DNA of 35,080 nucleotides from Rickettsiales bacterium (GTDB lineage: Bacteria > Pseudomonadota > Alphaproteobacteria > Rickettsiales > UBA3002), in NCBI GenBank assembly GCA_044225085.1, contig JBGAJE010000002.1, forward strand, positions 1 to 35,080. The letters run 5' to 3'. The translations under genes and the position numbers were made by a program. A model generated the notes under the pieces. That model saw only the letters and a program-made list of their open reading frames with translations, was not told where the DNA came from and did not search any database. This document shows positions 10,910-35,080 of this stretch, in pieces (position 1 is the stretch's first letter; every line of letters starts with the position of its first letter).

Positions 10910-10984
10910 TTGTCATTCCCGCGAAAGCGGGAATCTTAGAGTGCTTCTGCGGGTGCAAGATTCCCGCTTTCGCGGGAATGACAA
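10910..10984. repeat. palindromic element, family A (copy A1, intergenic pcm/nlpD)
   Basis: TTGTCATTCCCGCGAAAGCGGGAATCTT...AAGATTCCCGCTTTCGCGGGAATGACAA. Each arm is itself a hairpin (ATTCCCGC-N4-GCGGGAAT), and the two arms are inverted copies of each other. Confidence 0.85.
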
Positions 10985-11004
10985 GATCTAACTAAAGAAA
11001 AAAA

Positions 11005-11742
11005 CTAACCCGCTACCAGCGGCACGAACCGCACCGGCGCGAGCGCTTCTTTGCGGACTTCATCTTCCGCCACGCGCGTCAGCTTCAGCAATTGCTGATC
11101 CGCCACATGCGGGCCCACCGGCACAACCATCACCCCACCAATCGTGAGTTGCGCGAGGAGCGTGTGCGGAATCGTATCCGCCGCAGCCGTCACAATGATG
11201 CGTTCATAAGGCGCGGCCAGCGGCCAGCCCTTGCTGCCATCGCCCAAATGCGCGTCGATATTGCGCATTTTTAGCGTTTCAAAGCGGGACTTGGCGAGCT
11301 CAAACAGCGGCCGGTGCCGCTCGATCGTATGCACCCGCCGCGCCAGCTTCGCCAGCACCGCCGCCTGGTAGCCCGAGCCGGTGCCAATCTCCAACACACA
11401 ATGCCGCGGCTGCACATCCAGCGCCTGCGTCATCATTGCCACCACGGAGGGCATGCTGATCGTCTGCTCCATTGCAATCGGCAGCGCATTATCGTCATAG
11501 GCCCGGTCATGAAACTGCTCCTCCACAAACGCCTCGCGCGGCACCTGCTCCATCGCCCCCAGCACGCGCGTATCGGTGACACCCGCCTTGCGCAACGACA
11601 TCAACAGCCGAATTTTTTGGGAAGCAAGCCAGTCATCCTGCGTATTGGCCAGCGCCGGGTGAACCCCCGCAATCGGCTGCGCCACAGGCTTCGCAGCCCC
11701 CCTCTTATGCGCCGACGCCATCATGCCATGCCTCCCCTGCAA
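11005..11742 (-). CDS. pcm: protein-L-isoaspartate O-methyltransferase
   Basis: VPREAFV, ISMPSVVAMM and VLEIGTGSGYQAAVLA (SAM motif) are present. The start is uncertain (M1, M7 or M8), and the N-terminal extension is about 40 aa. Confidence 0.9.
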   Translation of the reverse strand: MQGRHGMMASAHKRGAAKPVAQPIAGVHPALANTQDDWLASQKIRLLMSLRKAGVTDTRVLGAMEQVPREAFVEEQFHDRAYDDNALPIAMEQTISMPSVVAMMTQALDVQPRHCVLEIGTGSGYQAAVLAKLARRVHTIERHRPLFELAKSRFETLKMRNIDAHLGDGSKGWPLAAPYERIIVTAAADTIPHTLLAQLTIGGVMVVPVGPHVADQQLLKLTRVAEDEVRKEALAPVRFVPLVAG

Positions 11743-11873
11743 AACTTAGGGAAAGGAAACCATAGGTTTGGCCCAGCGGCAGTAAAAAACGCCGAAAAAG
11801 GGAGTTTTAGAGGCAAATCGTCACACGGCTGTAACAAACTTCCTTTAGTATAAACTTAAATTGATGAGGTTTT

Positions 11874-12506
11874 ATGTCAACCGATGATGAACGCGAAAAT
11901 CCGCCACCACCTGAAGAATTAGGCGTCATGGATTTAGATTCCCCATGGGGCATATTTAGAATGCATGGCAGGGAAGAAATAGTACGATTTATGGGGGAAG
12001 CCGGCATTCAAGCCAAAATGGCAATACCTTGCACTAGTCTGGACGATCTTTTGCTAGCAGTGCCCGCAGGCATAAACCTTAATGATAACTTTATAATAGC
12101 TTATGGATTTAATAAATTGCAGGAACGTCTTCAAGCACAACCACTATTCAATCGTCAGCTTGCTATCAAAGAACTTGCCGGTTCGCTTTTCGACATTGTG
12201 GAACAGATAAATGAAATAAATACAGGCACAAGAAAGCTTCCATCCTTTGAAGCAAATAAACACATGCTGCCAGCAGAAAAACGAAAACTGGACCTGATAA
12301 CTATGCCGCCAGTCTTTATATCCGCACACGCCCGACATGACCACAAAGCCGGCGCCGAGCTTTATAAACCAATCGCTGAAAAATTTCTCGATAGCCTCGA
12401 CCAATACCTAGCTAACCTCGTTCCTCAGAAAGAACAACAAACAAGTATGGTCGAAAAATACGCAGTTCGCACCGGCCCTGGACAAGGGCCATATTGCCCC
12501 GGCTAG
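11874..12506 (+). CDS. hypothetical protein (orphan) on the opposite strand between surE and pcm
   Basis: 210-aa ORF, AT-richer, with GAGG 5 nt before the ATG. No recognisable motifs. Confidence 0.55.
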   Translation: MSTDDERENPPPPEELGVMDLDSPWGIFRMHGREEIVRFMGEAGIQAKMAIPCTSLDDLLLAVPAGINLNDNFIIAYGFNKLQERLQAQPLFNRQLAIKELAGSLFDIVEQINEINTGTRKLPSFEANKHMLPAEKRKLDLITMPPVFISAHARHDHKAGAELYKPIAEKFLDSLDQYLANLVPQKEQQTSMVEKYAVRTGPGQGPYCPG

Positions 12507-12510
12507 CACA

Positions 12511-13284
12511 TCACTTCACCACCGCCCGCAACTGCTTCAACACCGCGTAATTCGTCATATCCATATTAATCGGCGTCACGGTAATCCACCCCTCTTTAAT
12601 CTTCATATAATCCGCATCCGGCTGCTCGGTGAAGGGCTCCGTCCGCTGCCCGCCGATCCAGATATAGGGGCGCCCATGCGGGTCCACTCGGCGATGCAGA
12701 TTATCATCCAGCTTCCGCCGCCCCTGCGGGCAGGCAGCACGCCCCTTCACCAGCTCCACCGGCAGCGCCGGGAAGTTCACATTCATAAACGTATCATGCG
12801 GCCAATCAATCGCCGTCAAATCCCGAATAATCCCCGCCGCGAACTGCTCCGGCACATCCCAGCTAATGCCCTCATTCGTCAGCACGTTGGAAAACGCGAT
12901 GGCCGGAATCTCCAGCAACGTCGCCTCCATCGCCGCTGCGATCGTGCCGGAATACGTCACATCCTCCGCCAGATTGCTCCCGCGATTCACGCCCGATAAC
13001 ATCAACCCCGGCCGCTTATCCTTCAGCATTTCCATCACACCCACCAGCACCGCATCCGTCGGCGTGCCCATCACCGCGAACCGGCGCTCACTCACCTGCC
13101 GATACCGCAGCGGCGCATGCAGCGACAACGAATGCCCCGCCCCGCTTTGCTCCTTATCAGGCGCCACGACCCACACATCGTCCGACAACGTCCGCGCAAT
13201 GCGCTCCAGCACCGCAATGCCCTCAGCCTCAACGCCATCATCGTTACTGATCAGGATACGGGTGTTTTTTAGATTGATTGCCAT
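12511..13284 (-). CDS. surE: 5'/3'-nucleotidase SurE
   Basis: RILISNDDGVEAEGI, GTPTDAV and SGVNRGSNLAEDVTYSGTIAAAMEA match SurE signatures. Confidence 0.95.
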   Translation of the reverse strand: MAINLKNTRILISNDDGVEAEGIAVLERIARTLSDDVWVVAPDKEQSGAGHSLSLHAPLRYRQVSERRFAVMGTPTDAVLVGVMEMLKDKRPGLMLSGVNRGSNLAEDVTYSGTIAAAMEATLLEIPAIAFSNVLTNEGISWDVPEQFAAGIIRDLTAIDWPHDTFMNVNFPALPVELVKGRAACPQGRRKLDDNLHRRVDPHGRPYIWIGGQRTEPFTEQPDADYMKIKEGWITVTPINMDMTNYAVLKQLRAVVK

Positions 13285-13439
13285 TTACCTCTCCCATCGG
13301 GAGAGGTCTAAATTCGCCTTCGAATTTAGGTTGAGGGCCACACCGCTCAATCCCCCATCAGCGCAAAATAAAAGACACGCACAAGCCCTCACCCGAAATC
13401 GTAAAGAACGATTTCGACCTCTCCCGATGGGAGAGGTAA
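13285..13439. repeat. palindromic element, family B (copy B1, serS-surE spacer)
   Basis: Terminal hairpins TTACCTCTCCCATCGGGAGAGGTC / GACCTCTCCCGATGGGAGAGGTAA. Inner hairpins AAATTCGCCTTCGAATTT and CGAAATCG-N7-CGATTTCG. GTTGAGGGCC pairs with GCCCTCACC. Confidence 0.85.
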
Positions 13440-13453
13440 CGCGGCGCACTTCG

Positions 13454-14815
13454 TTATGCATGATTGCCACCAATCACCGTCATCCCACCCATATAAGGCA
13501 CCAGCGCGTCCGGAACTTTCACCGACCCATCCGCCTGCTGGTAATTCTCCAAAATCGCCACCAGCGTGCGCCCCACTGCGAGGCCAGAGCCATTCAGCGT
13601 ATGCACAAACCGCGTCTCCTTCTCGCCGGAGCGATAGCGCGCCTTCATCCGACGTGCTTGGAAATCACCGCAGTTGCTGCAGCTCGAAATCTCGCGGAAC
13701 GTATCCTGCGCTGGCAGCCACACTTCGATGTCAAACGTCTTGCGCGCCGAAAACCCAGTATCCCCCGCACAAAGCAGCATCACCCGGTAATGCAGGCCGA
13801 GGCGCTTGAGCACCTCCTCCGCACAGCCCAACATCCGCTCATGCTCCGCCTCCGATTGCTCCGGCGTGGTGATACTCACCAGTTCCACCTTCGAAAACTG
13901 GTGCTGCCGAATCATCCCCCTTGTATCCCGCCCCGCCGAGCCCGCCTCAGAACGGAAACACGGCGTCCACGCCGTCATCCGCCGCGGTAGCTGCGCAGCA
14001 TCTAAAATTTCATTCGCGGCTAAATTCGTGAGCGACACTTCGGAGGTCGGAATCAATCCAAACCTGCTAGTTTTGAATCCTTGCTTCTCTTCTTCAAATC
14101 TCTGCTGAAACCATTTCATTCCTTCGGATGGACTTAACTTTAAAGCTTCTCTCCATTCCATATTATTAGTGAAGAAGAGATCTCCTTCAAACTTCGGCAA
14201 CTGCCCCGTGCCGAACAACGCCGCATCTTTTACCAGATACGGCACCTGGTGCTCGGTATACCCAAACTCGCCGGTATGAATATCGAGCATAAAACTCGCC
14301 AGCGCCCGCTCCAGCTTGGCGAGCGCCCCGCGCAACACCACAAACCGCGCACCGGAAAGTTTGGCGGCGGCCTCAAAATCCATCAGCCCCAGCCCTTCGC
14401 CAATCGCGACATGGTCCTTCGGCGACGCAATCGCAGGCTTGCTGCCCACCACGCGCAACTCCACATTGCCCGATTCATCCGCCCCATTCGGCACATCATC
14501 CGCGAGGATATTCGGAATGCTCGCCAGCGCCGCGTCAAACGCACCGCCCTCACCGCTTTCCAGTGCTGCGATTTGCTCCTTTAGTGCTTTGCCCTCAGCG
14601 AGCAGCGGCGCGATGTCGCGCCCTTCCTTCTTCGCTGCTGGAATACCCTTCGCGATCTCATTCGCACGCGCCTGCAGCGCTTGCACCTGTGTTTTCCCGC
14701 CACGATCTTCCGCGTCGAGCTTTTGCAGCGCCTCCACATCCACCGCATAATTCCGCCGCGCCATCGCCGCCTTGAATGCATCCGGGTTTTTGCGAATCAG
14801 TTCTTTGTCGTGCAT
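13454..14815 (-). CDS. serS: serine--tRNA ligase (with ~30-aa in-frame insertion)
   Basis: [50 protein letters not shown] and [16 protein letters not shown] are class II SerRS motifs. Confidence 0.95.
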
Positions 14816-14826
14816 GGTATCTTCCT

Positions 14827-15606
14827 TTATTCAGCCATCTCAGCGGGGATAATGAATGCGTCCGCACTGGCGCGGCGGCGCTCGATTAATCGGCCAACCA
14901 CAATAGAAACCTCATAAAGCGCATAAAGCGGAATGAAAAGCAGGACTTGGCTCAAGATATCCGGCGGGGTGATAAATGCCGCGATGGTGAGCAAAATCAC
15001 CACAGCGTAACGGCGGCCCTTTGCAAGCGTTTGCGCCTTTAAAAAGCCGACGCGAATGAGCAGCGTGAGCAAAATCGGCAATTGAAACGCGAGGCCGAAC
15101 GCGAGGATGATATGCATCACAAGGCCGAGATACTCACTCACCTTCGCTTCAATCGTCAGCGGCAACCCACCTTGTTCTGCGGGAATTTCAAACGAGATAA
15201 AAAACGCCCAAGCTTTCGGCAATATCAGGTAATAGGCCATCGCCGCGCCGATAAAAAACAGAGCCGGCGCGCAGACGAGATACAGCGCCAGCACCCAGCG
15301 TTCGCTTGAACACCCCGGTGCCACGAACAAATACACCTCCGTCGCGATATACGGAAACGCCACAAAAAAGCCGCCATAGATAGCGAGCTTGATATAGGTC
15401 ACAAATGTTTCGGTGAGGTTGGTCGCGATCAGCCGATGTTCATTATCGCCAAACGCTTGCGCCAGCGGGTGCAGCAGAAACTGATAAATATCTGCCGCAA
15501 AAAAATAGCATAGGCCGGTGGCGACAAGCCACACAGCGACGCTGCGCATCACCCGGCCGCGTAGCTCGATGAGGTGGGAAATCAGCGGGGTTTCTTGGTC
15601 AGTCAT
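14827..15606 (-). CDS. tatC: twin-arginine translocase subunit TatC
   Basis: Start taken at [18 protein letters not shown], overlapping the tatB stop by 8 nt. Six TM segments are typical of TatC. Confidence 0.95.
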
Positions 15607-15904
15607 GGGGGAGATTCCCATTCTCCGGCTTCACCGCACTAAGCGTTTCCAGCTCCCGCACGTCATAGGCCTTTTGCGGGTTGCCATCCATATCGATAAT
15701 GGTGGTCATGTTTTGGCGCAGGTCGTCCATCCCCGCCTCTTCCATCACCTGATGCATTTGCGATTTGAGGCCCGCATACACCCCACGAATCTCACGCAAA
15801 AAGCCCATCACGTGTCGCACCACCACGGGCAAATCCTTCGGCTTGATGAGCACGATTCCTGCCACCGCGATCAGCGCTATTTCTGAAAGTCCGATATCGA
15901 GCAT
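15599..15904 (-). CDS. tatB: twin-arginine translocase subunit TatB
   Basis: Start taken at MLDIGLSEIALIAVAGIVLIKPKDLPVV (ATG 15904). This is a TatA/B-type N-terminal TM segment followed by an amphipathic helix. Confidence 0.8.
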   Translation of the reverse strand: MLDIGLSEIALIAVAGIVLIKPKDLPVVVRHVMGFLREIRGVYAGLKSQMHQVMEEAGMDDLRQNMTTIIDMDGNPQKAYDVRELETLSAVKPENGNLPHD

Positions 15905-15911
15905 GCATCCC

Positions 15912-16007
15912 TCGTCATTCCCCGAATTTACAAAGTAAATTCTAGGGGAATCCATCACTGCCGCGTCCCATGGATCACCCGAATCGCTGCGCGATTCGGG
16001 TGATGAC
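15912..16007. repeat. palindromic element related to family A (copy A4, tatA-tatB spacer)
   Basis: Termini CGTCATTCCCCGAAT / ATTCGGGTGATGACG. Internal hairpins ATTCCCC-N21-GGGGAAT (15917-15951) and ATCACCCGAATCGC-TGC-GCGATTCGGGTGAT (15974-16004, 14-bp perfect stem). Confidence 0.6.
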
Positions 16008-16013
16008 GGCGTT

Positions 16014-16190
16014 CTACTTCTTCTCTTCCGGCGGCAGCACTTGCTGTTTGCCGTTTTTTTCGTCGCCGTTGAGCTCATCGCGCAGGTTTTTGATGCCTTT
16101 GCCGATATCGCCCATCACGCGCGGCAGCTTGCCCGCGCCAAAAAGAATGACCACCACGAGCAGCACCAAAACCAAATGCATAATCTGCAT
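16014..16190 (-). CDS. tatA: twin-arginine translocase subunit TatA
   Basis: 58-aa ORF below the track threshold: MQIMHLVLVLLVVVILFGAGKLPRVMGDIGKGIKNLRDEL... GAGGA lies upstream. Confidence 0.85.
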   Translation of the reverse strand: MQIMHLVLVLLVVVILFGAGKLPRVMGDIGKGIKNLRDELNGDEKNGKQQVLPPEEKK

Positions 16191-16231
16191 AAATCCTCAC
16201 AAAATTCGTTGCTGTAGGCTTAGCACAGGCC

Positions 16232-17251: not shown

Positions 17252-17253
17252 GC

Positions 17254-19850: not shown

Positions 19851-19882
19851 AAGAGGCCCAGTTCTAGAACAAATCCCGTGGA

Positions 19883-20863: not shown

Positions 20864-20871
20864 CGAGCACC

Positions 20872-21894: not shown

Positions 21895-21917
21895 TAATAT
21901 ATAGTTAATTTATGAGC

Positions 21918-23094
21918 TTACGTCCGTGCCGCCGGGTCAAAAATCCGGGCGTGTTCTTCGAGGGCGAAGCGGTCCGTCATGCCGGCGATGAAGTCGGCGA
22001 TGATTTCGGCGGTGCGTTGGGTGCCTGTGCCATCCGTCTGGGCGTACCAGACCGAGGGTAAACAGCCTGGTTCTTCAAGGAAAAAGTTGAAGAGTTCCTG
22101 TACCACCCGGCGGGCCTTACTGGTCATGCGGTTGACCTTGAAATGGCGGTACATATGCTTGAATAGGAATGTTTTGATGGATTTATTGACGATTTCCATC
22201 TCTGCCGAGAAACGCACGAGTTGCTGGCCCAGCTTGCGCACATCTTCCGGTGAGGTGATTTTGAAATCTTTAATCCGCGCTTGGGTGTTGCCTAGCACGT
22301 CGCTCATCATGCGGTTAATCATCCGCCGCACCACTTCGTGGCTTTGGCGTTGGGGGGAGCATTGGGTATTGGCCACGCACTTCCATGATAAGTTCGCCGA
22401 GTAGCGGCAGGCCTTCCAACTCGTCGAGCGTGAAGAATCCCGCGCGCAGACCGTCATCGATGTCGTGGTTATTATAGGCGATGTCATCGGCAATGGCGGC
22501 GACTTGGGCTTCGGCGCTGGCGTAGCTGCTTAACTCTAAGTCCTGCTGCTCGATGTAATAGACGAGTGCGCGGGGAAGCGGCCTTGCACCGGCGAAGCCT
22601 GTGAGGGGCCCGTTATGCTTCGCGATGCCTTCGAGTGTTTCCCAGGTGAGATTCAGCCCATCGAAATCGGCATAGCGATTTTCGAGATGAGTGAGGATGC
22701 GGATGGTTTGGGCGTTATGGTCGAACCCGCCAAAATTTGCCATCGCTGCGTGCAACCCATCTTCCCCCGCATGGCCGAAGGGTGGGTGACCCAGATCATG
22801 CGCGAGGGCTAATGCCTCCGCCAAATCCTCATTCAGATGTAAACTGCGGGCGAGACCACGGGCAAGTTGCGCGACTTCCAGCGAATGGGTCAGACGCGTG
22901 CGGTAATGGTCGCCCTCGTGATTGACGAAGACTTGCGTCTTATATTCCAACCACCGAAACGCGACCGAGTGAATGATACGGTCGCGATCCCGCTGATGCG
23001 GTGTGCGCATGTGGCATTCGCGTTCAGAAAATAACCGCCCGCGGGATTTTTCGGGGTCGGTCGCATATGCTGCTAAATTCAGATACTGGGTCAT
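21918..23094 (-). pseudogene. dgt: dGTP triphosphohydrolase-like HD-domain protein, frameshifted in a G6/C6 run
   Basis: ORF 22315..23094 ([25 protein letters not shown]) and ORF 21918..22493 ([15 protein letters not shown]...GMTDRFALEEH) are the N- and C-terminal parts of one dgt-like protein in different frames. The junction is at the homopolymer 22352-22357. Confidence 0.8.
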
Positions 23095-25012: not shown

Positions 25013-25051
25013 ACACTTGCAGAAAGCTGCGGTTGCTTACATAACCAGCCT

Positions 25052-25843: not shown

Positions 25844-25847
25844 CATA

Positions 25848-27751: not shown

Positions 27752-27759
27752 GTCGAAAT

Positions 27760-28203: not shown

Positions 28204-28209
28204 TACCCT

Positions 28210-28592
28210 TTATGCTGCTGTCCGCAGCTCTAAAAACCGGCGGATGGTCATTAGAAAATCATCAATCGCGATGGGTTTTGAGGTAAGCTTCACAGCCAGC
28301 AGCCATGATTTTTCCTCATCGTCCTTCATCGCGAAGGCGGTTACAGCAATAATTGGAATATGCTGGATCTGCGAATCCACTTTTGATTTTGCGGGTGACA
28401 TCGAGGCCCGGAAATCTCGGAACAGTTGTATATCCATCTCACAATTAAGTCCGGCTGCACATTGCGGGTGATGCTGATAGCTTCGATCCCCTCTTTGGTC
28501 TCGTATGTCTCGTAGCCATTCGCGCCCAAAAGATCGCGAAAGAGCTTCAAGTTCAGGTCGTTATCTTCGACGATGAGAATCTTCTTTGCCAT
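28210..28592 (-). pseudogene. divK: DivK-like single-domain response regulator, disrupted by multiple indels
   Basis: MAKKILIVEDNDLNLKLF...PDLI is in frame 0. MDIQL, SEISG, LDVTRKIK, DSQIQHIPIIAVTAFAMKDDEEK, IMAAGCEAYL and SKPIAIDDFLMTIRRFL are scattered over three frames. Confidence 0.8.
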
Positions 28593-28662
28593 GCGCGGCG
28601 GTTCTCCCTGTTAGCCGTAATATAGTTACTTTTTCGGGAATTATTTACGGAAAACTCCTGCT

Positions 28663-28764
28663 CCCTCTCCCCTCGCGGGAGAGGGCTGGGGTGAGGGGGT
28701 TCTCCACTGGCGAAAAGCGGGGGTTGGCCCCCTCATCCTAACCTTCTCCCGCAAGGGGAGAAGG
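28663..28764. repeat. palindromic element, family C (copy C1, polA-divK spacer)
   Basis: CCCTCTCCCCTCGCGGGAGAGGG hairpin, GGGGTGAGGG pairing with CCCCTCATCC, and CCTTCTCCCGCAAGGGGAGAAGG hairpin. Starts 8 nt downstream of the polA stop. Confidence 0.8.
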
Positions 28765-28772
28765 GATAAAAA

Positions 28773-31700
28773 TTAATGCGCGTCGCCCCAGTGCTGGCCG
28801 ATGCCTGCTTCGACCGTCAGGGGGACGGAAAGTGCGGCTACATTTTCCATCGTGCGCTTCACTTGCGGGGCGAGCGCGGCGGCTTGGTCTGCTGGAGCTT
28901 CGATGATGAGTTCGTCATGCACTTGAAGGAGAAGACGCGCCCCTTTCACCTCTCCCACCGGGAGAGGTCGAAATCCGCCTTCGGATTTCGGGTGAGGGCC
29001 CGACAGTGAAGAAGACTGCAGCGCGGCGCCCTCACCCAAAATTTGCGGGGGCAAATTTTGACCTCTCCCGGTGGGAGAGGTAAGAAGTCCATGCACCTCA
29101 ATCATCGCGCGTTTGATGATATCTGCCGCTGTGCCTTGCAGCGGCGCATTGATTGCTGCGCGCTCCGAGAACGACCGGAAGTTCGGGTTCTTTGCATTAA
29201 TATCGCGCACGTGAATGCGGCGACCATACAGCGTTTCGACATATTCATGCTCGCGCGCGAACTGGATCGTGCGATCCATATATTCCCGAATCCCCGGATA
29301 GCGCTCGAAATATTTGCCGATATAGGTCGATGCCTCGGAGCGCGAAATACCGAGCTGCGCGCTTAAGCCATGCGCGCTGATGCCGTAAATAATCCCGAAA
29401 TTAATCGCCTTTGCGCGGCGGCGAATTTCGGGGGTCATTTGGTCGAGCGGCACGCCGAACATCTCGCTCGCCGTCACTGCGTGAATATCGGCACCACTGC
29501 GGAACGCTTCCTTCAGCGCGCCGATATCGGCCATATGCGCGAGCAGTCGTAGCTCGATCTGCGAATAATCCGCTGAGATAAGCTTGAACCCCGGTGGAGC
29601 GATGAACGCGGTGCGAATACGACGGCCCTCTTCGGTGCGGATCGGAATATTTTGTAAATTCGGATCGCTCGATGCCAGCCGCCCCGTGCTCGCCACCGCC
29701 ATTGAGAAACTCGTATGCACCCGCCCGTCGCGCGGCGATGTCGCCTTGGGCAACGAATCCGTATAGGTGCTTTTCAGTTTTGAATATTGCCGCCACTCAA
29801 GCACTTTGCGGGCGATCTCGTGCCCCTCTTCCGCCAGCGCCTCGAGCGTTGCGGCATCGGTGGTATACGCGCCACTTTTGCTCGATTTTTTACCACCGCC
29901 AAGCTGGAGCTTGTCATACAGCACCTCGCCCAATTGCTTCGGCGAACCCACTGAGAACGGCATGCCAGCGAGTTTGATGACTTCCTCTTCCAGCGCATTT
30001 ATTTTCAGTGCGAACTGGCCGGAGAGTTCGGTCAGCAACTTCACATCAATCGCCACGCCCGCCACTTCCATCGCCGCGATCACGGGCACAAGCGGCCGCT
30101 CGATCGTCTCATACACCGTCACTACATGGTTCGCGATGAGTTGGGGTTTTAGCAATTCATAAAGCCGCAGCGTAAAATCCGCATCTTCCGCCGCGTAGTC
30201 CGTCGCCGCATCCAGCGGCACTTGCGCGAAGTTGATTTTCGCTTTGCCTGTACCAGTGACGGATTCATAGGAAATCATCTTATGGTTAAAGTGTCGGTCG
30301 ACGAGAAAATCTAACCCATGCGCGTGCAACCCACCTGCCGTGCAGTAGGACATCAACATCGTATCCGCCACCGGCGATATGCGCGCACCATATTTCTCCA
30401 GCACCACGAGGTCGTATTTAATGTTATGGCCAACCTTCATTACGGATGGATGGGTGAGCATCGGCTGTAACAATTCCAGCACGCGTGGCAGTGAAAGTTG
30501 CCCAGGCAGCAGTTTCTTCTGCCCACTTGTTGGCGCATCAAATAAACTCGATTGCGGCACCGCGTCGCCACCCATTTCACTCACATGACCGACGGGGATG
30601 TAGCATGCCTTGCCCGGTGCCGTGCTCAGCGAAATACCAACGAGTTCCGCATCCACCGCCGCAAGCGATGTTGTTTCGGTATCTACCGCCAGCGTGCCCA
30701 CGCGCATCGCCTCGGTGATCCAACGTTGGAGTGCCGCTTCATCGGCAACCATTTCGTAATGCGCTTCAACTTTGTCATTCCCGCGAAGGCGGGAATCTTC
30801 TGATATTTGCGCCATATCCGAAGAGAGATTCCCGCCTTCGCGGGAATGACGTGTGGAGGGGTTCGTGAATCTTGCTGCCGCCGGATTTGCTGATGACTGA
30901 TGACTAGTGGCTGATTCACCTGCTAGTCCCATCTTCTTCGCGAGTGATGAAAAGTTCTGGGCATCCAAAAACGCCGCCAGCGCGGCGCTATCAAACGGCC
31001 GCGTCTCCAGCGCCGCCAGCGGCTCCGGCAGCGGCACGTCGTGCTTCAGCTCCACCAACTGCCGCGACATCCGCGCCGCCTCCGCATGCGTCGTCAGCAC
31101 TTCGCGCCGCTTCGGTTGTTTGATTTGATCGAGATGCGCCAGCACCCCCTCGAGCGTCCCGAATTGCGTAATCAACTCCGCCGCCGTCTTCGGCCCAATG
31201 CTCGGCACCCCCGGCACATTATCCACCGAATCCCCAATCAGCGCCTGCACTTCGACGACCTTATCCGGCATCACGCCGAATTTTTCCACCACCTGCGCGC
31301 TACCGATGAATTTCTGCTTCATCGGGTCCATCATCGTCACTTCACCATCAACGACGAGCTGCATCAAATCCTTGTCGGAGGACACAATCACCACCTCGCG
31401 CCCCTCGGCCCGCGCGGCCTCCGCATAGCTTGCGATCAAATCATCCGCCTCGTAATTCTCAAGCTCAATCGCCGGGATATTCAGCGCCCGCGTTACCTCG
31501 CGCACCAGTGGAAATTGCGGAATCAGCTCCTCCGGCGTTTCCGAGCGGTTCATTTTATATTCGGGATACAACTCCGAGCGGAAGCTCTTGCGTCCCGCAT
31601 CGAAAATCACCGCCAGCATATCGTGCTTATAGGTCTCGCGCAGCTTCAGCAGCATGGTGGTGAAGCCATAGACAGCCCCGACTTGTGTCCCATCTCGCCG

Positions 31701-31808
31701 CGTCAGCGGAGGCAGCGCGTGAAATGCCCGAAAAATATAGCCCGAGCCATCGACCAACACGAGACGTTGGGGTTTTGTTTCAGCGGTTGCAGTTTGTGCG
31801 GTTTCCAT
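28773..31808 (-). CDS. polA: DNA polymerase I (1011 aa, carrying two repeat-derived in-frame insertions)
   Basis: 5' nuclease domain (LVDGSGYIFRAFHA), 3'-5' exonuclease domain (LAVDTETTSL), and polymerase motifs A (SADYSQIELR), B (RRRAKAINFGIIYG) and C (QVHDELI). Confidence 0.95.
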   Translation of the reverse strand: METAQTATAETKPQRLVLVDGSGYIFRAFHALPPLTRRDGTQVGAVYGFTTMLLKLRETYKHDMLAVIFDAGRKSFRSELYPEYKMNRSETPEELIPQFPLVREVTRALNIPAIELENYEADDLIASYAEAARAEGREVVIVSSDKDLMQLVVDGEVTMMDPMKQKFIGSAQVVEKFGVMPDKVVEVQALIGDSVDNVPGVPSIGPKTAAELITQFGTLEGVLAHLDQIKQPKRREVLTTHAEAARMSRQLVELKHDVPLPEPLAALETRPFDSAALAAFLDAQNFSSLAKKMGLAGESATSHQSSANPAAARFTNPSTRHSREGGNLSSDMAQISEDSRLRGNDKVEAHYEMVADEAALQRWITEAMRVGTLAVDTETTSLAAVDAELVGISLSTAPGKACYIPVGHVSEMGGDAVPQSSLFDAPTSGQKKLLPGQLSLPRVLELLQPMLTHPSVMKVGHNIKYDLVVLEKYGARISPVADTMLMSYCTAGGLHAHGLDFLVDRHFNHKMISYESVTGTGKAKINFAQVPLDAATDYAAEDADFTLRLYELLKPQLIANHVVTVYETIERPLVPVIAAMEVAGVAIDVKLLTELSGQFALKINALEEEVIKLAGMPFSVGSPKQLGEVLYDKLQLGGGKKSSKSGAYTTDAATLEALAEEGHEIARKVLEWRQYSKLKSTYTDSLPKATSPRDGRVHTSFSMAVASTGRLASSDPNLQNIPIRTEEGRRIRTAFIAPPGFKLISADYSQIELRLLAHMADIGALKEAFRSGADIHAVTASEMFGVPLDQMTPEIRRRAKAINFGIIYGISAHGLSAQLGISRSEASTYIGKYFERYPGIREYMDRTIQFAREHEYVETLYGRRIHVRDINAKNPNFRSFSERAAINAPLQGTAADIIKRAMIEVHGLLTSPTGRGQNLPPQILGEGAALQSSSLSGPHPKSEGGFRPLPVGEVKGARLLLQVHDELIIEAPADQAAALAPQVKRTMENVAALSVPLTVEAGIGQHWGDAH
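28945..29083. repeat. palindromic element, family B (copy B2, inside the polA polymerase domain)
   Basis: TTCACCTCTCCCACCGGGAGAGGTCGAAATCCGCCTTCGGATTTCGGGTGAGGGCC...GCCCTCACCCAAAATTTGCGGGGGCAAATTTTGACCTCTCCCGGTGGGAGAGGTAA. Same module order as B1. Confidence 0.85.
30772..30850. repeat. palindromic element, family A (copy A2, inside the polA inter-domain linker)
   Basis: TTGTCATTCCCGCGAAGGCGGGAATCTT...GAGATTCCCGCCTTCGCGGGAATGAC. It is translated in the polA frame as RHSREGGNLSSDMAQISEDSRLRGND. Confidence 0.85.
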
Positions 31809-31817
31809 AACTCTCCA

Positions 31818-31912
31818 TTGTCATTCCTGCGAAGGCAGGAATCCAGCGCGACGTGAGACGCGTCGCAAGTATCATTTAAGAAGCTGGATGCCAGCCTTCG
31901 CTGGCATGACAA
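31818..31912. repeat. palindromic element, family A (copy A3, polA/esterase divergent spacer)
   Basis: TTGTCATTCCTGCGAAGGCAGGAATCCAG...CTGGATGCCAGCCTTCGCTGGCATGACAA with a central hairpin GCGACG-N7-CGTCGC. Confidence 0.8.
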
Positions 31913-31994
31913 GTGGCGGCTTTAGCGCTAGCATCCAGTCACAAAAACTGGCAACACCATAACGAACAATCCCTCACACGAAAGCGAAAACGCC

Positions 31995-32648
31995 ATGTCA
32001 CCCACACTCCTCACCGGCCCCGAGCGCGCACCGGCCAGCGGCAATGTCAAACACCTTGTCATCTTCCTCCACGGCCTTGGGTCGGACGGCGCCGACCTCA
32101 TCAGCCTCGCCGACATGATGAACCTGCCCGACACCCAATTCCTCTCCCCCAACGCGCCCTTCCCATGTGACATGGCGCCCTACGGCTATCAGTGGTTCTC
32201 CCTGCTCGACCGCAACCCCACTAAAATGCTCATTGGCATTCAGGAAGCAGCGCCCATCCTCAACCACTATATCAATCACCAAATTGCTCGCTTCAAACTC
32301 AGCGCTAAGGATGTCGCCCTCGTCGGCTTTTCCCAGGGCTCGATGATGTCGCTTTATGTCGCCCCGCGCCGCGCGGAACCGCTCGCCGGTGTCGTCGGCA
32401 TTTCCGGCGCGCTCCTCGGCGGCGAGATGCTGGCCGAACAAGCCGCCTCCAAACTCCCCATCTGCCTCATCCATGGCGATGCGGATGAAGTCGTCCCCTT
32501 CGCCGCCATGGGCCATGCCCACACCACCCTCAAAACCCATGGCTACGACGCACAAGTCCATCAACGCCCTGGGTTAGGACATGGTATTGATGAACAAGGA
32601 TTAATTATCGCCGAAACCTTCCTGAAGAAGCAATTGCACATCGGCTAA
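31995..32648 (+). CDS. phospholipase/carboxylesterase-family alpha/beta hydrolase
   Basis: VIFLHGLGSDG, GFSQGSMMS (nucleophile elbow) and IHGDADEVVP are present. About 217 aa. Confidence 0.85.
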   Translation: MSPTLLTGPERAPASGNVKHLVIFLHGLGSDGADLISLADMMNLPDTQFLSPNAPFPCDMAPYGYQWFSLLDRNPTKMLIGIQEAAPILNHYINHQIARFKLSAKDVALVGFSQGSMMSLYVAPRRAEPLAGVVGISGALLGGEMLAEQAASKLPICLIHGDADEVVPFAAMGHAHTTLKTHGYDAQVHQRPGLGHGIDEQGLIIAETFLKKQLHIG

Positions 32649-32714
32649 TTGTCATCAAACTTTCACGCTATAAAAAGCCGTTTTTGCTAGGATAACTCCA
32701 GTAACGGAGCTCCT

Positions 32715-33686
32715 ATGAATCTCGAGACTTTAGCAGCACATGGCATCACTCCCGAAGCGCTACAAGACTTCGTGAACGGAGTTGAAAAAACTATCCCCGG
32801 TTTTTTTACGCATGCTGTTCCGCCGGTGCAGGCACCAGAAGATAACGAATATGCGCCCGAAAATGAGATTCCTCACCCGCTTGATAATGCCATCAAAGTT
32901 CACGAGGCCGACAATCAAACCATGGTGCGATTTTCTTTTTATGGTGAATATGCTCAAGAGCGCGCTGAAATATTGCAGCGTTTTTTTACCGAACAGGAGT
33001 CACTCGTACCCAAAATGCCAGATAGGCATAGACAGTCGCGAACAAATAAAACGCTACAGACCGTTGTCGAAAAATTAACCGAACCAGTGGCCATCAACCC
33101 CAGAGCCACTCCTTGGAAAAACACCTATATCGCTGCCCATGAAGGCAATCCCTGCGTTGAAATCAATGCCGCCTTTTTGAAGATTATTCTCGATCATCCC
33201 CACGTCATCGAGACTTTTGTGCCGCCGCCAAAAACGTCAGCAACTATAACTCCCGCACATGCAAATTTGTATTCTTTTTTAAACTTTTTGGATGCCGACA
33301 CCTTTCAAGAAAACGATCCTTGCATCATGGTTTTTCAAGGCCTCGCTAAAAGAGAAAGAGCCCAAGCAGTCAATGAATTCATGAACACCATGCTTAACGA
33401 GCTATTGCCCACACAGCGTCACCGCTTGCCATCGGAACGCGCGAGCATGATAGCCATAGAAGATACCCGTCCACGTCAATATGCCCTCTATATCCCCAGA
33501 GCATTAATGCATGCTGTTTTGGATGCCGAACGACAGAACCCACAAAAACTGCGCGAAGCTTTTGGAGTCATACTTGCGCGCCACTCCAACGCTGAAACCG
33601 GCCCCGAGACAACCATTGGCACAGACAACGCAGAGCATATTGGCGGTCTGCCGGGCACCGACCAGATTATCCCCCCGACTAAATGA
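32715..33686 (+). CDS. hypothetical protein (orphan), two copies of a module shared with the next gene
   Basis: 323-aa ORF with GGAG before the ATG. Module pairs are MVRFSFYGEYAQERAEILQRF / IMVFQGLAKRERAQAVNEF and AFLKIILDHPHVIETF / ALMHAVLDAERQNPQKLREAF. Confidence 0.6.
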   Translation: MNLETLAAHGITPEALQDFVNGVEKTIPGFFTHAVPPVQAPEDNEYAPENEIPHPLDNAIKVHEADNQTMVRFSFYGEYAQERAEILQRFFTEQESLVPKMPDRHRQSRTNKTLQTVVEKLTEPVAINPRATPWKNTYIAAHEGNPCVEINAAFLKIILDHPHVIETFVPPPKTSATITPAHANLYSFLNFLDADTFQENDPCIMVFQGLAKRERAQAVNEFMNTMLNELLPTQRHRLPSERASMIAIEDTRPRQYALYIPRALMHAVLDAERQNPQKLREAFGVILARHSNAETGPETTIGTDNAEHIGGLPGTDQIIPPTK

Positions 33687-33778
33687 CTCGGATAACGGCC
33701 AATTGTCACCAAACCTTAATACATAAGCGTCACGTTCGCTTGTAAACTGATCCTCATAACCCCTATTCGGAGCTAATC

Positions 33779-34333
33779 ATGGCTGATGAAGCATACCACG
33801 CAGCGGCAGAAACGGCTGCCCCCCAAGAAGCGATTGCCGATGCTGCACTTGCTGAGCCCGCAATCTCACCTGCTGAGGCGCTGGTAAAGCGATTAATAGC
33901 GGTAAAATTTGCGGAGTCAGAATTCCAACCGCCTGTCAGTGCGGTTGCGACAGACTTCATGTTCACGCATGTTCGATTTTCAGATTTTCGCGCTGAAACA
34001 ACAGCCAATGCACTATGCGAGGGGATTGAGGGTGTCATTGACACGTTCAATATAGCCACTCCAAGCGTGCCAAAAGTCGAAAAGATTGGCGACAAAAAAT
34101 TTGCCTTCCAACTCAGCATTACCAACAGACTCTTAGCAACGCTTATTGAAAAGCACACGGCCCAACCCGCCGCTTTCGAGGCTGCCTTCATCGCCGGGCC
34201 GAGAAAGCTAAAAGATGTTCCACTCTCCGAACCATTTGAGCCATTGAAGCCCAGAATACCAACCCCCGCCGCAACCTATGCCGAAGAAGCTACTCAGCAA
34301 GTTGGTGTCTCTGGCGGTATTGGTGGATTATAA
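33779..34333 (+). CDS. hypothetical protein (orphan), one copy of the same module
   Basis: 184-aa ORF with GGAG before the ATG. THVRFSDFRAETTANALCEGI ... RLLATLIEKHTAQPAAFEAAF parallels the module of the upstream gene. Confidence 0.55.
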   Translation: MADEAYHAAAETAAPQEAIADAALAEPAISPAEALVKRLIAVKFAESEFQPPVSAVATDFMFTHVRFSDFRAETTANALCEGIEGVIDTFNIATPSVPKVEKIGDKKFAFQLSITNRLLATLIEKHTAQPAAFEAAFIAGPRKLKDVPLSEPFEPLKPRIPTPAATYAEEATQQVGVSGGIGGL

Positions 34334-34385
34334 GGCGACCGATCGCTACCAAAATTTTAGACTTCTTCGGTTCAAAAAATGCGCG

Positions 34386-35080
34386 CTAGATTTTGGCCGC
34401 ATCGATACCAACCGCATCGGCCAAATGCCTGAACCCGTCGCGCGCTAACAATTCCACCAACCCACGATTCACCCGCTCCGCCAGCCCAAAGCCCTGATAC
34501 ACTAGCGCCGTGTAAAGCTGCACCAAACTCGCCCCTGCGCGAATCTTCGCATACGCATCCTCTGCACTGCTAATCCCACCGACGCCGATAAGTGGCACCT
34601 TCCCGCCCGTTAGCCGATACATGGTGGCGAGTGCGGCGGTTGAAGCCTCAAACAACGGCCGCCCGCTGAGGCCCCCCGCCTCGCCCGCCAGCGCACTGCC
34701 CGCCACGCGGTCACGCGCAATCGTCGTGTTGCTGACGATCAGCCCATCGAGCTTCTCACCGAGCGCCACCTCCGCAATCGCCTCAAACATCGCCGGGTCC
34801 CCATCCGGCGCGATTTTGACAAAGATGGGTTTTGTTTGGCTGGATGGAGCGTCTTGAGCCCTCTCCCCTCGGGGGAGAGGGTTGGGTGAGGGTGCTATCA
34901 TCCGCTTTTCGTTGTTAGTCTCGTCGCCAGCGGATGGCCCCCTCATCCCACCCTTCTCCCCCATGGGGAGAAAGCGTGCCCGTTCCGCCTGCAACGCCCG
35001 CACCAGCGCTCGCAGCTCATCCGCCGCCTGCAGCGCCCGCAAACCCGGCGTGTTGGGCGAGGAGATATTCGCCGTGATGT
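34386..35080 (-). CDS. pyrD: dihydroorotate dehydrogenase (quinone), C-terminal part (5' end outside window), carrying a repeat-derived insertion
   Basis: The frame is open to the window edge: ITANISSPNTPGLRALQ...PIFVKIAPD...LIVSNTT...GGLSGRPL...IGVGGISSAEDAYAKIRAGASLVQLYTALVYQG. Confidence 0.9.
   Translation of the reverse strand, partial: ITANISSPNTPGLRALQAADELRALVRALQAERARFLPMGEKGGMRGPSAGDETNNEKRMIAPSPNPLPRGERAQDAPSSQTKPIFVKIAPDGDPAMFEAIAEVALGEKLDGLIVSNTTIARDRVAGSALAGEAGGLSGRPLFEASTAALATMYRLTGGKVPLIGVGGISSAEDAYAKIRAGASLVQLYTALVYQGFGLAERVNRGLVELLARDGFRHLADAVGIDAAKI
34859..34973. repeat. palindromic element, family C (copy C2, inside pyrD)
   Basis: CCCTCTCCCCTCGGGGGAGAGGGTTGGGTGAGGG...GGCCCCCTCATCCCACCCTTCTCCCCCATGGGGAGAAAG. 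Same module order as C1. Confidence 0.85.

Follow-up and report, generated by a model that had tools for sequence, protein, structure and literature searches.

CGTC-1 REPs are defined by a CGTC or TGTC tag, an 8-bp stem with AT first, a 4-nt loop and a CCA tail; head-to-head (HH) dimers prevail, the hosts are mainly Alphaproteobacteria, and the class was equated by its authors with Neisseria dRS3 and Rickettsia conorii RPE-6 (Di Nocera, De Gregorio & Rocco 2013, PMC3733652). CGTC REPs are known in frame within genes, notably DNA repair genes including that of DNA polymerase I (PMC3733652), and no dedicated transposase has been reported for them in the literature. RPE-1, according to the accounts in PMC10969869 and PMC3733652 of Ogata et al. 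2000, comprises palindromic repeats of ~100-150 bp that lie in frame in unrelated housekeeping genes.

The BoxC/PIT/TMECO motif of E. coli is reported to be always intergenic, with no dedicated transposase (PMC4666352), and can form inverted ('palindromic') pairs (Holder et al. 2015, PMC4666352, citing earlier BoxC and Hoyne/Maher work). TMECO loci are indel-prone, and 'palindrome effect' deletions at pairs may leave a single hairpin (PMC4666352). The whalefall-1 RNA (RF01762; 16 seed sequences) is filed as an sRNA from a whale-fall metagenome only (Weinberg et al. 2010, PMC2864571).

Eight palindromic elements in one alphaproteobacterial contig

The window analysed here, 35 kb, is an entire contig of an uncultured alphaproteobacterium with 55% GC and a broad housekeeping gene set rather than a reduced intracellular genome; the PolA closest to that of the host is 74% identical. 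The first-pass annotation had described nested-hairpin palindromic elements in three families, and all are present where it placed them: family A at 10910-10984, 30772-30850 (extending to 30852) and 31818-31912, with a diverged copy at 15912-16007, family B at 13285-13439 and 28945-29083 (in-frame segment 28946-29083), and family C at 28663-28764 and 34859-34973. Its total of nine copies is eight by its own listing, so its intragenic fraction of 3 of 9 becomes 3/8. When local inverted repeats in the window are ranked by length, the top seven are these elements. Single-strand folding compared with shuffles gave z = -4.5 to -12.5, with 0/200 shuffles folding equally well, and the family A arm pattern (9 matches, 0.03 expected), the B/C hairpin motif (7 matches, 0.08 expected) and GGGTGAGGG (5 matches, 0.16 expected) all occur in the window far above chance. 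Five of the eight copies are intergenic, directly past stop codons or within operon spacers; the other three are in frame within polA (A2 and B2) and pyrD (C2), with orthologues that do not have these inserts. Relatives and 78 metagenomic contigs also hold copies, which bears out the earlier view of dispersed REP-like structured doublets.

Family A fits the CGTC-tagged REPs of type CGTC-1 and is not a new family. Each arm has a (C/T)GTC head, an 8-bp stem beginning with AT, a 4-nt GAAR loop and a 3-nt tail, and arms are paired head-outward across a variable spacer of 19-40 nt. The stems covary (TCCCGC, TCCTGC, GCCAGC, TCCAGC, CCCTGC) and the head is constant. A1 (10910-10984) is an intergenic head-to-head dimer, TTGTCAT-ATTCCCGC-GAAA-GCGGGAAT followed by its mirror arm, 20 nt beyond the stop of pcm (11005-11742, minus strand); its 28-nt arms are 100% complementary (fold z = -12.5). 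The A2 dimer (30772-30852, minus strand) is translated in polA as residues ~320-346 (...TRHSREGGNLSSDMAQISEDSRLRGNDK...). A3 (31818-31912), a heterodimer with stems TCCTGC and GCCAGC and CCA tails, adjoins the polA Shine-Dalgarno on its upstream side (polA ATG at 31808), and A3-like dimers lie at the same position upstream of polA in L005, L010 and L058. A4 (15912-16007), a CGTC-tagged long-stem variant (TCGTCAT...ATGACG), contains two different hairpins of 14-15 bp (fold z = -8.0) and occupies the whole tatA-tatB spacer, outside any gene, from the tatA stop (16014) to 7 nt from the tatB ATG (15904); an A4-like stretch in L007 matches at 91% over 45 nt. dRS3 has the pattern ATTCCC(N8)GGGAAT, a single base separates family A from its Nf1 subtype, and the translation products VIPAKAGI and CHSRESGN are identical to R. 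conorii CGTC-1 peptides. The elements had been thought unrelated to RPEs; since family A fits the published class that includes RPE-6, this no longer holds for it.

Family C fits the E. coli BoxC/TMECO intrastrand-triplex motif in the form of an inverted pair, and is likewise not new. The published TMECO pattern, CCCTCNCCC-N3-6-GGGNGAGGG-N3-GGGNGAGGG, matches the left arms at 28663-28697 and 34859-34892 if a second loop of 2-3 nt is allowed (2 nt in C2), with 0 matches expected by chance, and the arms differ little from the E. coli sequences in Table 1 of Holder et al. 2015 (PMC4666352). C1 (28663-28764) lies 9 nt past the polA stop codon; its left arm fits the TMECO pattern and its right arm is the variant CCTTCTCCC/GGGAGAAGG/GGATGAGGG. 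C2 (34852-34974, core 34859-34973, minus strand) is in frame in pyrD (...GEKGGMRGPSAGDETNNEKRMIAPSPNPLPRGERAQ...). Full-length family C copies are abundant in Azospirillum replicons, at up to 24 places per record.

Family B, not new either, fits an inverted pair of the Rfam whalefall-1 motif, which itself reads as a BoxC-type unit with its linker replaced by a covarying hairpin. The unit of B1 (13285-13439) consists of hairpin CCTCTCCC/GGGAGAGG, a second, covarying hairpin and then GGGTGAGGG. B1 occupies the spacer from the serS stop (13454) to the surE ATG (13284), and the only Shine-Dalgarno-like sequence of surE is B1's terminal GGGAGAGG. B2 (28946-29083, minus strand) is a 138-nt doublet read as 46 codons of polA, residues ~912-957 (TSPTGRGQNL...FRPLPVGEVK). 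Against RF01762, B1 scored 43.2 bits and B2 35.4 bits; the gathering score is 37, which only one of the four family B arms in the window reached. Our own covariance model recovered all four at 73-82 bits (78.1 and 75.5 for B1) and scores family C arms as a family B unit with hairpin 2 deleted. Hairpin 2 has double changes at 6/7 pairs and is 99% paired. The arrangement is convergent in 32/39 doublets, and the Rfam seed contigs carry an inverted partner upstream.

In the unit common to families B and C, the mirror purine strand GGGTGAGGG comes after a pyrimidine/purine hairpin, CCCTCTCCC / GGGAGAGGG. We found, as a new result, that hairpin and mirror 'third strand' covary: the purine strand of the hairpin and the mirror strand change together across variants (triplex-type covariation), in a scan that kept cases with at least 8 of 9 compatible positions and thus favours compatible cases. 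From its sequence, the mirror purine strand could fold onto the hairpin and give an intrastrand DNA triplex, of which it would be the third strand. The single design assigned earlier to B and C is confirmed, and its "GC-rich clamp" is better described as the hairpin and mirror purine strand of a BoxC/TMECO intrastrand-triplex unit.

In-frame copies and turnover in Pol I and PyrD

The polA gene (28773-31808, minus strand) encodes a DNA polymerase I of 1011 aa and hosts A2 and B2, with C1 on its downstream and A3 on its upstream side. A2 lies in a variable linker that joins the 5'-nuclease domain to the 3'-5' exonuclease domain, the same linker that carries a CGTC-3 dimer at residues 338-367 of R. 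palustris Pol I (PMC3733652). B2 lies between helix Q and the QVHDE-bearing strand, between residues 545 and 550 of the Klenow chain and 9 residues before the catalytic Asp882. In an AlphaFold model, residues 298-344 (A2) and 914-954 (B2) have pLDDT <50 and are the only internal stretches of at least 40 residues that do; the rest of Pol I is modelled confidently. The in-frame copies are predicted to form disordered loops in their host enzymes. Class 2 dihydroorotate dehydrogenase is represented by the C-terminal 230 codons of pyrD (34386-35080, minus strand), which runs off the contig end; C2 adds ~41 residues to it, at a site coinciding with a loop where a solved DHODH carries a long insert of its own. 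These segments are genuine insertions: B2 is absent from 20/20 aligned PolA orthologues, C2 from 12/12 PyrD orthologues, and A2 sits in a variable linker; in-frame translation in polA and pyrD, which had been likened to that of Rickettsia palindromic elements, was confirmed for all three copies. On other contigs, in-frame family B doublets lie in SpoU methylase and in NadB inter-domain linkers. Intragenic REPs, including those of DNA polymerase I, are already published; BoxC/whalefall-1-type doublets in frame in enzymes (polA, pyrD, nadB, SpoU methylase) are new.

Also new is that the Pol I loop of B2, 9 residues ahead of the catalytic Asp, is filled by a B, A or C-like insert in lineages that are not sisters, with close relatives empty. 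Family B occupies this loop in the window, L074, L075 and P0006, which are non-sister in a NJ tree of PolA, and the insert is missing from the nearest relatives L076 (94% nucleotide identity to L074), L009 and P0002. The same loop holds a family A dimer in L077, a single-hairpin remnant in L078 and C-like sequences in P0006, P0080 and P0119. B2 matches an intergenic L007 copy at 96% over 52 nt, as compared to 85-90% for the same-site copies. Gain and loss must be rapid, because loci are filled, empty or differently filled among relatives at 85-94% nucleotide identity, and the deletion remnant in L078 shows that loss occurs. The comparison of orthologous loci proposed earlier thus yielded empty sites, but no target-site duplication is evident, the closest empty site compared (L076) differing in the loop itself.

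Scanning of ~36 window ORFs against Pfam found no transposase domain, in agreement with the first-pass annotation. A tblastn search with E. coli RayT (sequence checked at 100% identity) gave no match in 1.78 Mb made up of the window, 78 related loci and 78 copy-bearing metagenomic loci, or in the family C-rich Azospirillum replicons. The proposed search for a RAYT or other transposase flanked by the same hairpins was therefore negative, for RAYT in the window and these loci and for other transposases in the window, and membership among REPINs is not supported. As no mobilising enzyme was identified, we call the elements mobile on presence/absence patterns only.

Origin of the repeats

We favor, at a probability of roughly 75%, the reading that the eight elements are non-autonomous, structure-defined REP-class repeats of two published superfamilies (A; C together with B) with fast gain and loss. 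Insertion would proceed without target duplication, through a trans-acting enzyme encoded elsewhere or through structure-driven recombination or replication errors. Deletion between the two self-complementary terminal hairpins can leave a single hairpin, as seen in L078. Continued selection on DNA structure or gene conversion may keep the arms intact as spacers drift. The intragenic minority probably persists because these copies landed in disordered linkers or surface loops, they have at least one stop-free frame, and later indels have been compensated, keeping the host reading frame.

Strict REPINs, in which a RAYT (IS200/IS605-type Y1 transposase) from another part of the genome replicates each doublet as a unit, would share the inverted hairpin doublet with a conserved unpaired head, fixed as the stems covary, and the lack of evident target duplication is consistent with HUH/Y1 transposition. 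Some published RAYT-like 'TIRYT' genes lie between inverted repeats that have GGGGWSAS in common, and GGGGTGAG of the C1 arm fits this motif. Such an origin is nevertheless improbable: the heads are CGTC/TGTC or TTAC instead of GTAG, RayT homologues were missing from the 1.78 Mb and from Azospirillum, published surveys link no transposase to CGTC REPs or TMECO, and family A spacers are unrelated between copies, unlike those of recently replicated REPINs. We give still less credence to classical MITEs, which derive from insertion sequences by internal deletion, end in terminal inverted repeats and are moved by a DDE transposase with target-site duplication (e.g. TA, TTAA), even though 75-155 nt is a typical size and family B copies are often bounded by TA/TTAA on both sides (TTAACCTCTCCC...GGGAGAGGTTAA in L074 and L075, TTACC...GGTAA in B1). 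The flanking bases are palindromic and extend the inverted repeat, and are therefore no proof of duplication; adding one TTAA to the core gives a length not divisible by three in 3/3 in-frame polA copies; the window has no transposase, and no insertion sequence whose ends match the arms was seen; and each arm is a hairpin or triplex unit whose parts covary, no feature of transposase-binding terminal repeats.

It is also unlikely that the elements are first of all functional RNAs (sRNAs, terminators or mRNA stabilisers) whose spread is secondary. Whalefall-1 was rated as certainly RNA from covariation (Weinberg 2010, PMC2864571), hairpin 2 covaries strongly, 5/8 copies are found past stop codons or within operon spacers, and REPs are reported mostly downstream of ORFs. 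On the other hand, units are found in either orientation and form inverted pairs, including the upstream partners in the seed contigs, copies are translated within four different enzymes, no T-run follows the hairpins, and covariation of hairpin and mirror purine strand fits a purine-motif triplex, impossible in RNA according to Holder et al. (PMC4666352). A narrower question is whether the polA-loop copies represent one ancient insertion, vertically inherited and lost many times, or repeated insertion at a hot spot. The window, L074 and L075 carry the insert at one and the same position, in one orientation and in one frame (LLTSP...GEVK(G/K)ARLLLQ), L078 retains a deletion remnant and TMECO loci are deletion-prone (PMC4666352), leaving a single event some plausibility. 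We consider it the doubtful alternative, since carriers are scattered over the PolA tree with empty nearest neighbours, the window copy is intact (73-82 bits) as compared to the decayed 5' arms of L074 and L075 (40-45 bits), B2 is nearer the unlinked L007 copy than the same-site copies, the loop can hold family A or C-like sequence instead, and linker inserts are read in different frames across lineages.

Relation to described repeat families

Like REPINs, REP-RAYT systems and BIMEs, the elements are mainly extragenic inverted doublets at high density with a conserved head and covarying stems; they differ in having no GTAG head, no RAYT found and spacers that are not conserved between copies. 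They share with RPE-1, as it is summarized in later papers, in-frame palindromic inserts in housekeeping genes whose proteins are apparently functional, and families B and C, compared with those summaries by description only, have no evident sequence relationship to it. The host, at 55% GC with a broad housekeeping gene set, is unlike the reduced intracellular genomes in which RPE-1 resides.

The two hairpins and the GGGUGAGG tail of the whalefall-1 model recur in every family B arm, with a covarying hairpin 2. Unlike the Rfam sRNA, the motif is here one arm of an inverted DNA doublet that can be protein-coding, and it can be read as a BoxC unit whose linker is a hairpin. Its range extends beyond whale fall to alphaproteobacterial contigs from freshwater, soil and sludge and to Inquilinus. 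Family C agrees with BoxC/PIT/TMECO in its left-arm pattern, inverted pairing and lack of an associated transposase. In contrast to the always intergenic E. coli TMECO, its pairs are read in frame within pyrD and, in relatives, within Pol I, its right arms use the covaried triple GGGAGAAGG/GGATGAGGG, and its host is an alphaproteobacterium, with many copies in Azospirillum. Family A matches CGTC-1 in head, 8-bp stem, 4-nt loop, CCA-type tail and alphaproteobacterial host, and in a head-outward dimer with the published 20-100-nt spacer. It departs from the published reports in the 14-15-bp stems of A4 (8-9 bp published), in an uncultured new lineage as host, in a dimer that, in four lineages, abuts the polA ribosome-binding site, and in a dimer within the Pol I palm loop (L077).

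Elements of the contig and their in-frame copies

The window is a complete metagenomic contig with a GC content of 54.8%, and its exact PolA sequence turned up in no other contig. The PolA sequences closest to its own are 70-74% identical and come from uncultured Alphaproteobacteria that submitters labeled 'Rickettsiales bacterium', 'Alphaproteobacteria bacterium' and 'Azospirillum'; the nearest cultured genus by PolA is Inquilinus (~52% identity). Among ~36 ORFs searched with Pfam, we identified the housekeeping genes alaS, icd, hisF, pcm, surE, serS, tatABC, nagZ, argS, xth, polA and pyrD, together with glycosyltransferase, dGTPase and pleD-like genes. The same search returned no transposase or recombinase domain, in agreement with the first-pass annotation as to transposases, and no tRNA genes were found in the window. 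The dGTPase-like gene (HD and HD_assoc domains, 21918-23094, minus strand) is split over two overlapping frames by a frameshift, which points to a pseudogene or else to an error of sequencing or assembly. There is no repeat element at the break, and the orthologue in the related locus L074 is also broken into several small called genes.

All eight elements listed in the first-pass annotation are present in the window, although it had counted nine; the three copies it placed in frame in polA and pyrD are confirmed, two lying in polA and one in pyrD. When the local inverted repeats of the window are ranked by length, these elements account for the first seven. The family A arm pattern has 9 matches in the window (0.03 expected), the hairpin of families B and C has 7 (0.08 expected) and GGGTGAGGG has 5 (0.16 expected). 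Folded as single-stranded DNA, each of the eight elements scores better than 200 of 200 shuffles, with z values from −4.5 to −12.5.

Aligned with orthologues, the segments encoded by B2 and C2 proved to be insertions without counterpart. B2 (28946-29083) encodes a 46-residue segment of PolA, TSPTGRGQNL...FRPLPVGEVK, that is absent in 20 of 20 aligned orthologues. The segment is flanked by AADIIKRAM...L and ARLLLQVHDE, and alignment to the Klenow fragment places it between chain residues 545 and 550, with the catalytic Asp882 following some 9 residues later. C2 (34852-34974) adds ~41 residues to PyrD directly before the conserved KPIFVKIAPD, is absent in 12 of 12 orthologues, and occupies a loop in which the solved dihydroorotate dehydrogenase (DHODH) 6aj5 has a long insert of its own. 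The second polA copy, A2 (30772-30852), is translated as TRHSREGGNL...DSRLRGNDK in the length-variable linker between the 5'-nuclease and 3'-5' exonuclease domains. In an AlphaFold model, the 1011 residues of PolA reach a mean pLDDT of 85.6, and the only long internal low-confidence segments without secondary structure, residues 298-344 and 914-954, are the two insertion regions. Since the model is confident outside these segments, the host genes appear intact, and the inserts resemble disordered loops. A different insert of 31-41 residues, YRDKECVAFDGEPERSERGGA...VAGAKRPLSASAP, occupies another loop of pyrD in L074 (7953-8080) and in the related locus L077 (residues ~125-165) and is absent in their close relative L076; it is not clearly palindromic, the short GGGGGCGAAACGCCCCC hairpin being the only one evident.

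Relation of the three families to known repeat classes

The CGTC-tagged REPs of Di Nocera et al. (PMC3733652) carry an unpaired CGTC (often TGTC) head, 8-9-bp stems that nearly always start with A and then T, loops of 4-5 nt, and a 3-nt tail that is usually CCA. Dimers with the tags outside (head-to-head, HH) and spacers of 20-100 bp predominate, the hosts are mainly Alphaproteobacteria, no transposase is associated with the repeats, and the authors equate CGTC-1 with Neisseria dRS3 and Rickettsia conorii RPE-6 (PMC3733652). Compared with this definition point by point, the arms of family A fit, and the family is assigned to the CGTC-1 REPs. The terminal tag is TGTC in A1 (10910-10984), A2 and A3 (31818-31912), and CGTC in A4 (15912-16007) and in the copies of the related loci L007, L010, L058 and L075. 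Stems of 8 bp close 4-nt loops in ATTCCCGC-GAAA/GAAG-GCGGGAAT, ATTCCTGC-GAAG-GCAGGAAT and ATGCCAGC-GAAG-GCTGGCAT, and a complete arm that fits reads TGTC-ATTCCTGC-GAAG-GCAGGAAT-CCA. The tail is CCA in both A3 arms and in most copies of the relatives, and CTT in A1 and A2. All four copies in the window, a count of 4 in 35 kb, carry their tags outside with 19-40 nt between the arms; A4, with stems of 14-15 bp, lies outside the CGTC-1 stem definition. The density of family A arms is 1.1 per 10 kb over 375 kb of loci from the clade, versus 0.46 per 10 kb in other loci with a looser hairpin definition.

The CGTC-1 inserts of R. conorii encode the peptides VIPAKAGI and CHSRESGNP (supplementary table, PMC3733652), and translation of A1 and A2 in their open frames gives VIPAKAGI...IPAFAGMT and CHSRE(S/G)GN...DSR(F/L)RGND. 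Because of these peptides and the match to the definition, the earlier view that the elements are unrelated to RPEs is wrong for family A: CGTC-1 is the class that Di Nocera et al. equate with RPE-6, and VIPAKAGI and CHSRESGN are common to both. In-frame REPs inside Pol I are also already published, in the form of a CGTC-3 dimer at residues 338-367 of Rhodopseudomonas palustris DNA polymerase I (supplementary table, PMC3733652), the same linker that holds A2. A literature search with the exact arm sequence of family A returned no match. The Rfam family FtrB, a Francisella sRNA, weakly matches 30748-30873 on the minus strand (30 bits versus a gathering score of 66), and does so only because it contains the shared CGTC-1 hairpin GUCAUUCCCGCGUAGGCGGGAAUC, which suggests that the annotated FtrB sRNA includes a CGTC-1 REP.

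Families B and C lead to a second class. Holder et al. (PMC4666352) described an intrastrand-triplex motif, CCCTCNCCC-N3-6-GGGNGAGGG-N3-GGGNGAGGG, earlier named BoxC or PIT and here called TMECO, with 3610 occurrences counted across 262 proteobacterial genomes. The E. coli copies are all intergenic, at times in inverted pairs, and CD and NMR evidence supports a triplex there; in RNA, the authors note, purine-motif triplexes do not form. No mobility genes are linked to the motif, and its loci are locally prone to indels, some of them deletions from which a single hairpin remains (PMC4666352). With a second loop of 2-3 nt allowed (that of C2 is 2 nt), the pattern is matched by the left arms of both family C copies (28663-28697 in C1, 28663-28764, and 34859-34892 in C2), with 0 matches expected, and again in the polA linker of L077. 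These left arms are almost identical to E. coli sequences in Table 1 of PMC4666352. The right arms are a variant with hairpin purine strand GGGAGAAGG and third strand GGATGAGGG, in which the triple rules are kept: the third strand carries the mirror change needed to preserve G*G and A*A or T*A triples. The same holds for variants in relatives, GGGAGGGGG with GGGGGAGGG in Inquilinus and GGGGAGGGG with GGGGTGGGG in the related locus L029. The arms of families B and C are compatible, by sequence and by covariation of hairpin and third strand, with an intrastrand purine-motif triplex.

In family B, the Rfam family whalefall-1 (RF01762) matches one arm of B1 (13385-13439; 43.2 bits versus a gathering score of 37) and, below that score, one arm of B2 (28946-28999; 35.4 bits); the two remaining B arms had no RF01762 match reported at E<=1. 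A covariance model that we built from eight arms recovers all four B arms of the window at 73-82 bits and aligns the C arms as a B unit with hairpin 2 deleted, from which family B is assigned as a BoxC unit with a second hairpin in place of the 3-nt linker. Across 150 metagenomic arms, hairpin 2 is paired in 99% and double compensatory changes occur in 6 of its 7 pairs, while rare variants of hairpin 1 come with matching third-strand changes, as in GGGAAAGG with GGTAAGGG. Whalefall-1 has been known only from a whale-fall metagenome, with 16 seed sequences, and was classed as a non-coding RNA (Weinberg et al. 2010, PMC2864571). The flanking sequences of Weinberg et al. contain an inverted partner upstream. 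The inverted-pair layout and the in-frame copies argue against a stand-alone small RNA as the main role of whalefall-1. The data suggest that what Rfam files as an 'sRNA' is in fact one arm of a DNA repeat.

Full-length matches to family C were found in 38 Azospirillum replicons, at up to 24 places per record, and none of these matches lies under an annotated gene. Family B had no match in the plasmid collection, and its arm pattern none in viral contigs. The exact B arm pattern occurs in 78 metagenomic contigs, often many per sample (21 from Ga0068877, for example), in which the covariance model identified 39 doublets; 32 of the 39 are convergent, as in the window, and 115-158 nt long. Two of the 39 are in frame within genes, both in inter-domain linkers (of a SpoU-family methylase and of an L-aspartate-oxidase-like flavoprotein, NadB).

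Turnover at Pol I loops, and repeats at gene starts

Inserts of element origin occupy the palm loop, the site of B2, in 7 of 120 PolA homologues. Family B fills it in the window and in homologues P0005, P0006 and P0037; P0025 has a family A dimer, and P0080 and P0119 have B/C-like peptides. In a neighbor-joining tree, the four B carriers do not group as sisters, and for each of them a closer relative lacks the insert. Between P0005 and P0028 the protein differs by 2% (loci L074 and L076, 94% DNA identity across polA), and at the same polA site L074 has a doublet versus a plain 5-residue loop in L076. L077, 85-88% identical to both, instead carries a 69-nt CGTC-1 dimer (CHPCESRDPLHLSKEIPACAGMT) in the palm loop. 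L078, the nearest relative of L075, retains only TTAACTTCTCACTCGGGCGAGGCTAAA, a single decayed hairpin of the kind expected from deletion between two terminal hairpins.

A less likely account of this distribution has one old gain and many later losses, of which the L078 remnant would be an example. Bearing on the choice, B2 is 96% identical over 52 nt to an unlinked intergenic copy in L007, versus 85-90% to the same-site copies in L074 and L075, whose 5' arms are decayed (40-45 bits versus 73 bits for the arm in the window). We read the palm loop as a site of repeated gain and loss, a permissive or possibly a targeted one. The 70-residue palm-loop insert of P0006 (residues 884-953), known from the protein only, resembles a C-type pair (PLPLGERLGEGAG...PLTQPSPPRGEGF) lying within or alongside a B-type arm (SPHPKSEDGFRPLPMGEV), suggesting that new repeats land in, or right beside, those already present.

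Two further hot spots lie in the same enzyme. The linker holds family A dimers in the window, L007, P0004, P0049 and P0077, read in different frames. The third is a loop of the 3'-5' exonuclease domain after KYDLVVL(E/A)KYG, filled in the polA genes of L003, L005 and L007 (~aa 480-510) and in P0029 (residues 481-514), where peptides such as CHPGLVPGP and EIPASAGMT derive from other CGTC-type hairpins (GTCATCCCGGCCTTGTGCCGGGATCC). Just downstream of the polA stop, L050, a locus of an Acetobacteraceae MAG, has a BoxC-type inverted pair (12829-12976) placed like that at 28663-28764 in the window, and it may represent an independent insertion at the same kind of site.

Repeats also adjoin translation starts. 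A CGTC-1 dimer lies directly upstream of the polA Shine-Dalgarno sequence in four lineages (window 31809-31912, L005 9904-9993, L010 9832-9931, L058 3051-3119), whose PolA proteins are 64-83% identical to that of the window, for L058 only over a partial match. The stems differ among these dimers but are compensated (TCCTGC/GCCAGC, GCCAGC/ACCAGC, TCCAGC), and the dimer may have been inherited as part of the polA leader; such a position, inside a divergent promoter region, is unusual for REPs. B1 (13285-13439) fills almost all of the 169-nt serS-surE spacer, and its terminal hairpin (GGGAGAGG), followed by TAA, adjoins the surE ATG (13282-13300) and holds the only Shine-Dalgarno-like sequence for surE, so that translation of surE may depend on the repeat or be masked by it. 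A4 is noncoding: with tatA ending at 16014 and tatB starting at 15904, it fills the tatA-tatB operon spacer. It ends 7 nt before the tatB ATG.

Mobility and comparison with known systems

The repeats are structure-defined, multi-copy, polymorphic between close relatives and tolerated in frame in disordered loops. The design of inverted hairpins had led the first-pass annotation to liken them to REPINs, yet their heads are CGTC or TGTC in family A and T(T/C)AC in family B, not the REPIN head GTAG. Nor did we find the RAYT gene flanked by the arms that it had proposed to look for, whether in the window by Pfam or by tblastn with E. coli RayT in 1.78 Mb of related and copy-bearing loci and in Azospirillum and other alphaproteobacterial replicons. 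The repeats could alternatively be MITEs, which would have target-site duplications flanking their terminal inverted repeats and a parent insertion sequence with matching ends; no such parent was seen. Filled and empty sites were compared for target duplications in L074 versus L076 and in L075 versus L078. The flanks extend the palindrome (TT...AA or C...G in family A, TTA(A)...(T)TAA in family B) and so say nothing of duplications, and the empty side has changed as well: the closest empty site, that of L076 (94% identity), differs in the loop itself. Insertion would proceed without target duplication, driven by a mover encoded elsewhere or by host replication or recombination at DNA folded into hairpins or triplexes; no dedicated transposase is reported for CGTC REPs or TMECO (PMC3733652, PMC4666352).

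Our broadest reading is tentative, with a probability of roughly 0.3. The BoxC-type triplex-forming units, whalefall-1 included, would all belong to one widespread class of DNA structures, mobile or self-propagating, that repeatedly colonizes a few permissive loops of essential enzymes, such as that 9 residues before the Pol I catalytic Asp. They would be kept by three-way covariation of pyrimidine, purine and third strand while being translated, and their insertion would be targeted by DNA structure or pre-existing remnants and not filtered by selection alone.

The main value of the analysis is clarification. The first-pass observation is sound, and its three families, new-looking as they were, are already described under other, unrelated names: CGTC REP/dRS3/RPE-6, BoxC/TMECO and whalefall-1. 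What appears to be added is the coding BoxC/whalefall-1 doublets, the new reading of whalefall-1 as one arm of a DNA repeat, and the filled, empty and remnant series at the Pol I loop. The triplex-motif class is extended into coding sequence, whereas the E. coli work had reported it as strictly intergenic. The Pol I loop, filled, empty, remnant or differently filled among relatives at 82-94% nucleotide identity, offers a natural system for the gain and loss of repeats without a known transposase, a question that the papers of 2013 and 2015 left open. In annotation, inserts of this kind account for variable lengths of housekeeping proteins in MAGs and for the odd low-complexity peptides found in them (RHSREGGN, SRLRGND, PLPxGEV).

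Of the known systems, the Neisseria dRS3 pattern ATTCCC(N8)GGGAAT is fitted by all four arms of A1 and A2, which differ by one loop base from the Nf1-phage target subtype ATTCCCRCCTRCGCGGRAAK, but not by the arms of A3 and A4. Rickettsia palindromic elements insert in frame into conserved housekeeping proteins and are missing from orthologues; the same behavior is seen in polA (two copies) and pyrD of the window, and in the SpoU methylase and NadB genes of the metagenomic contigs.
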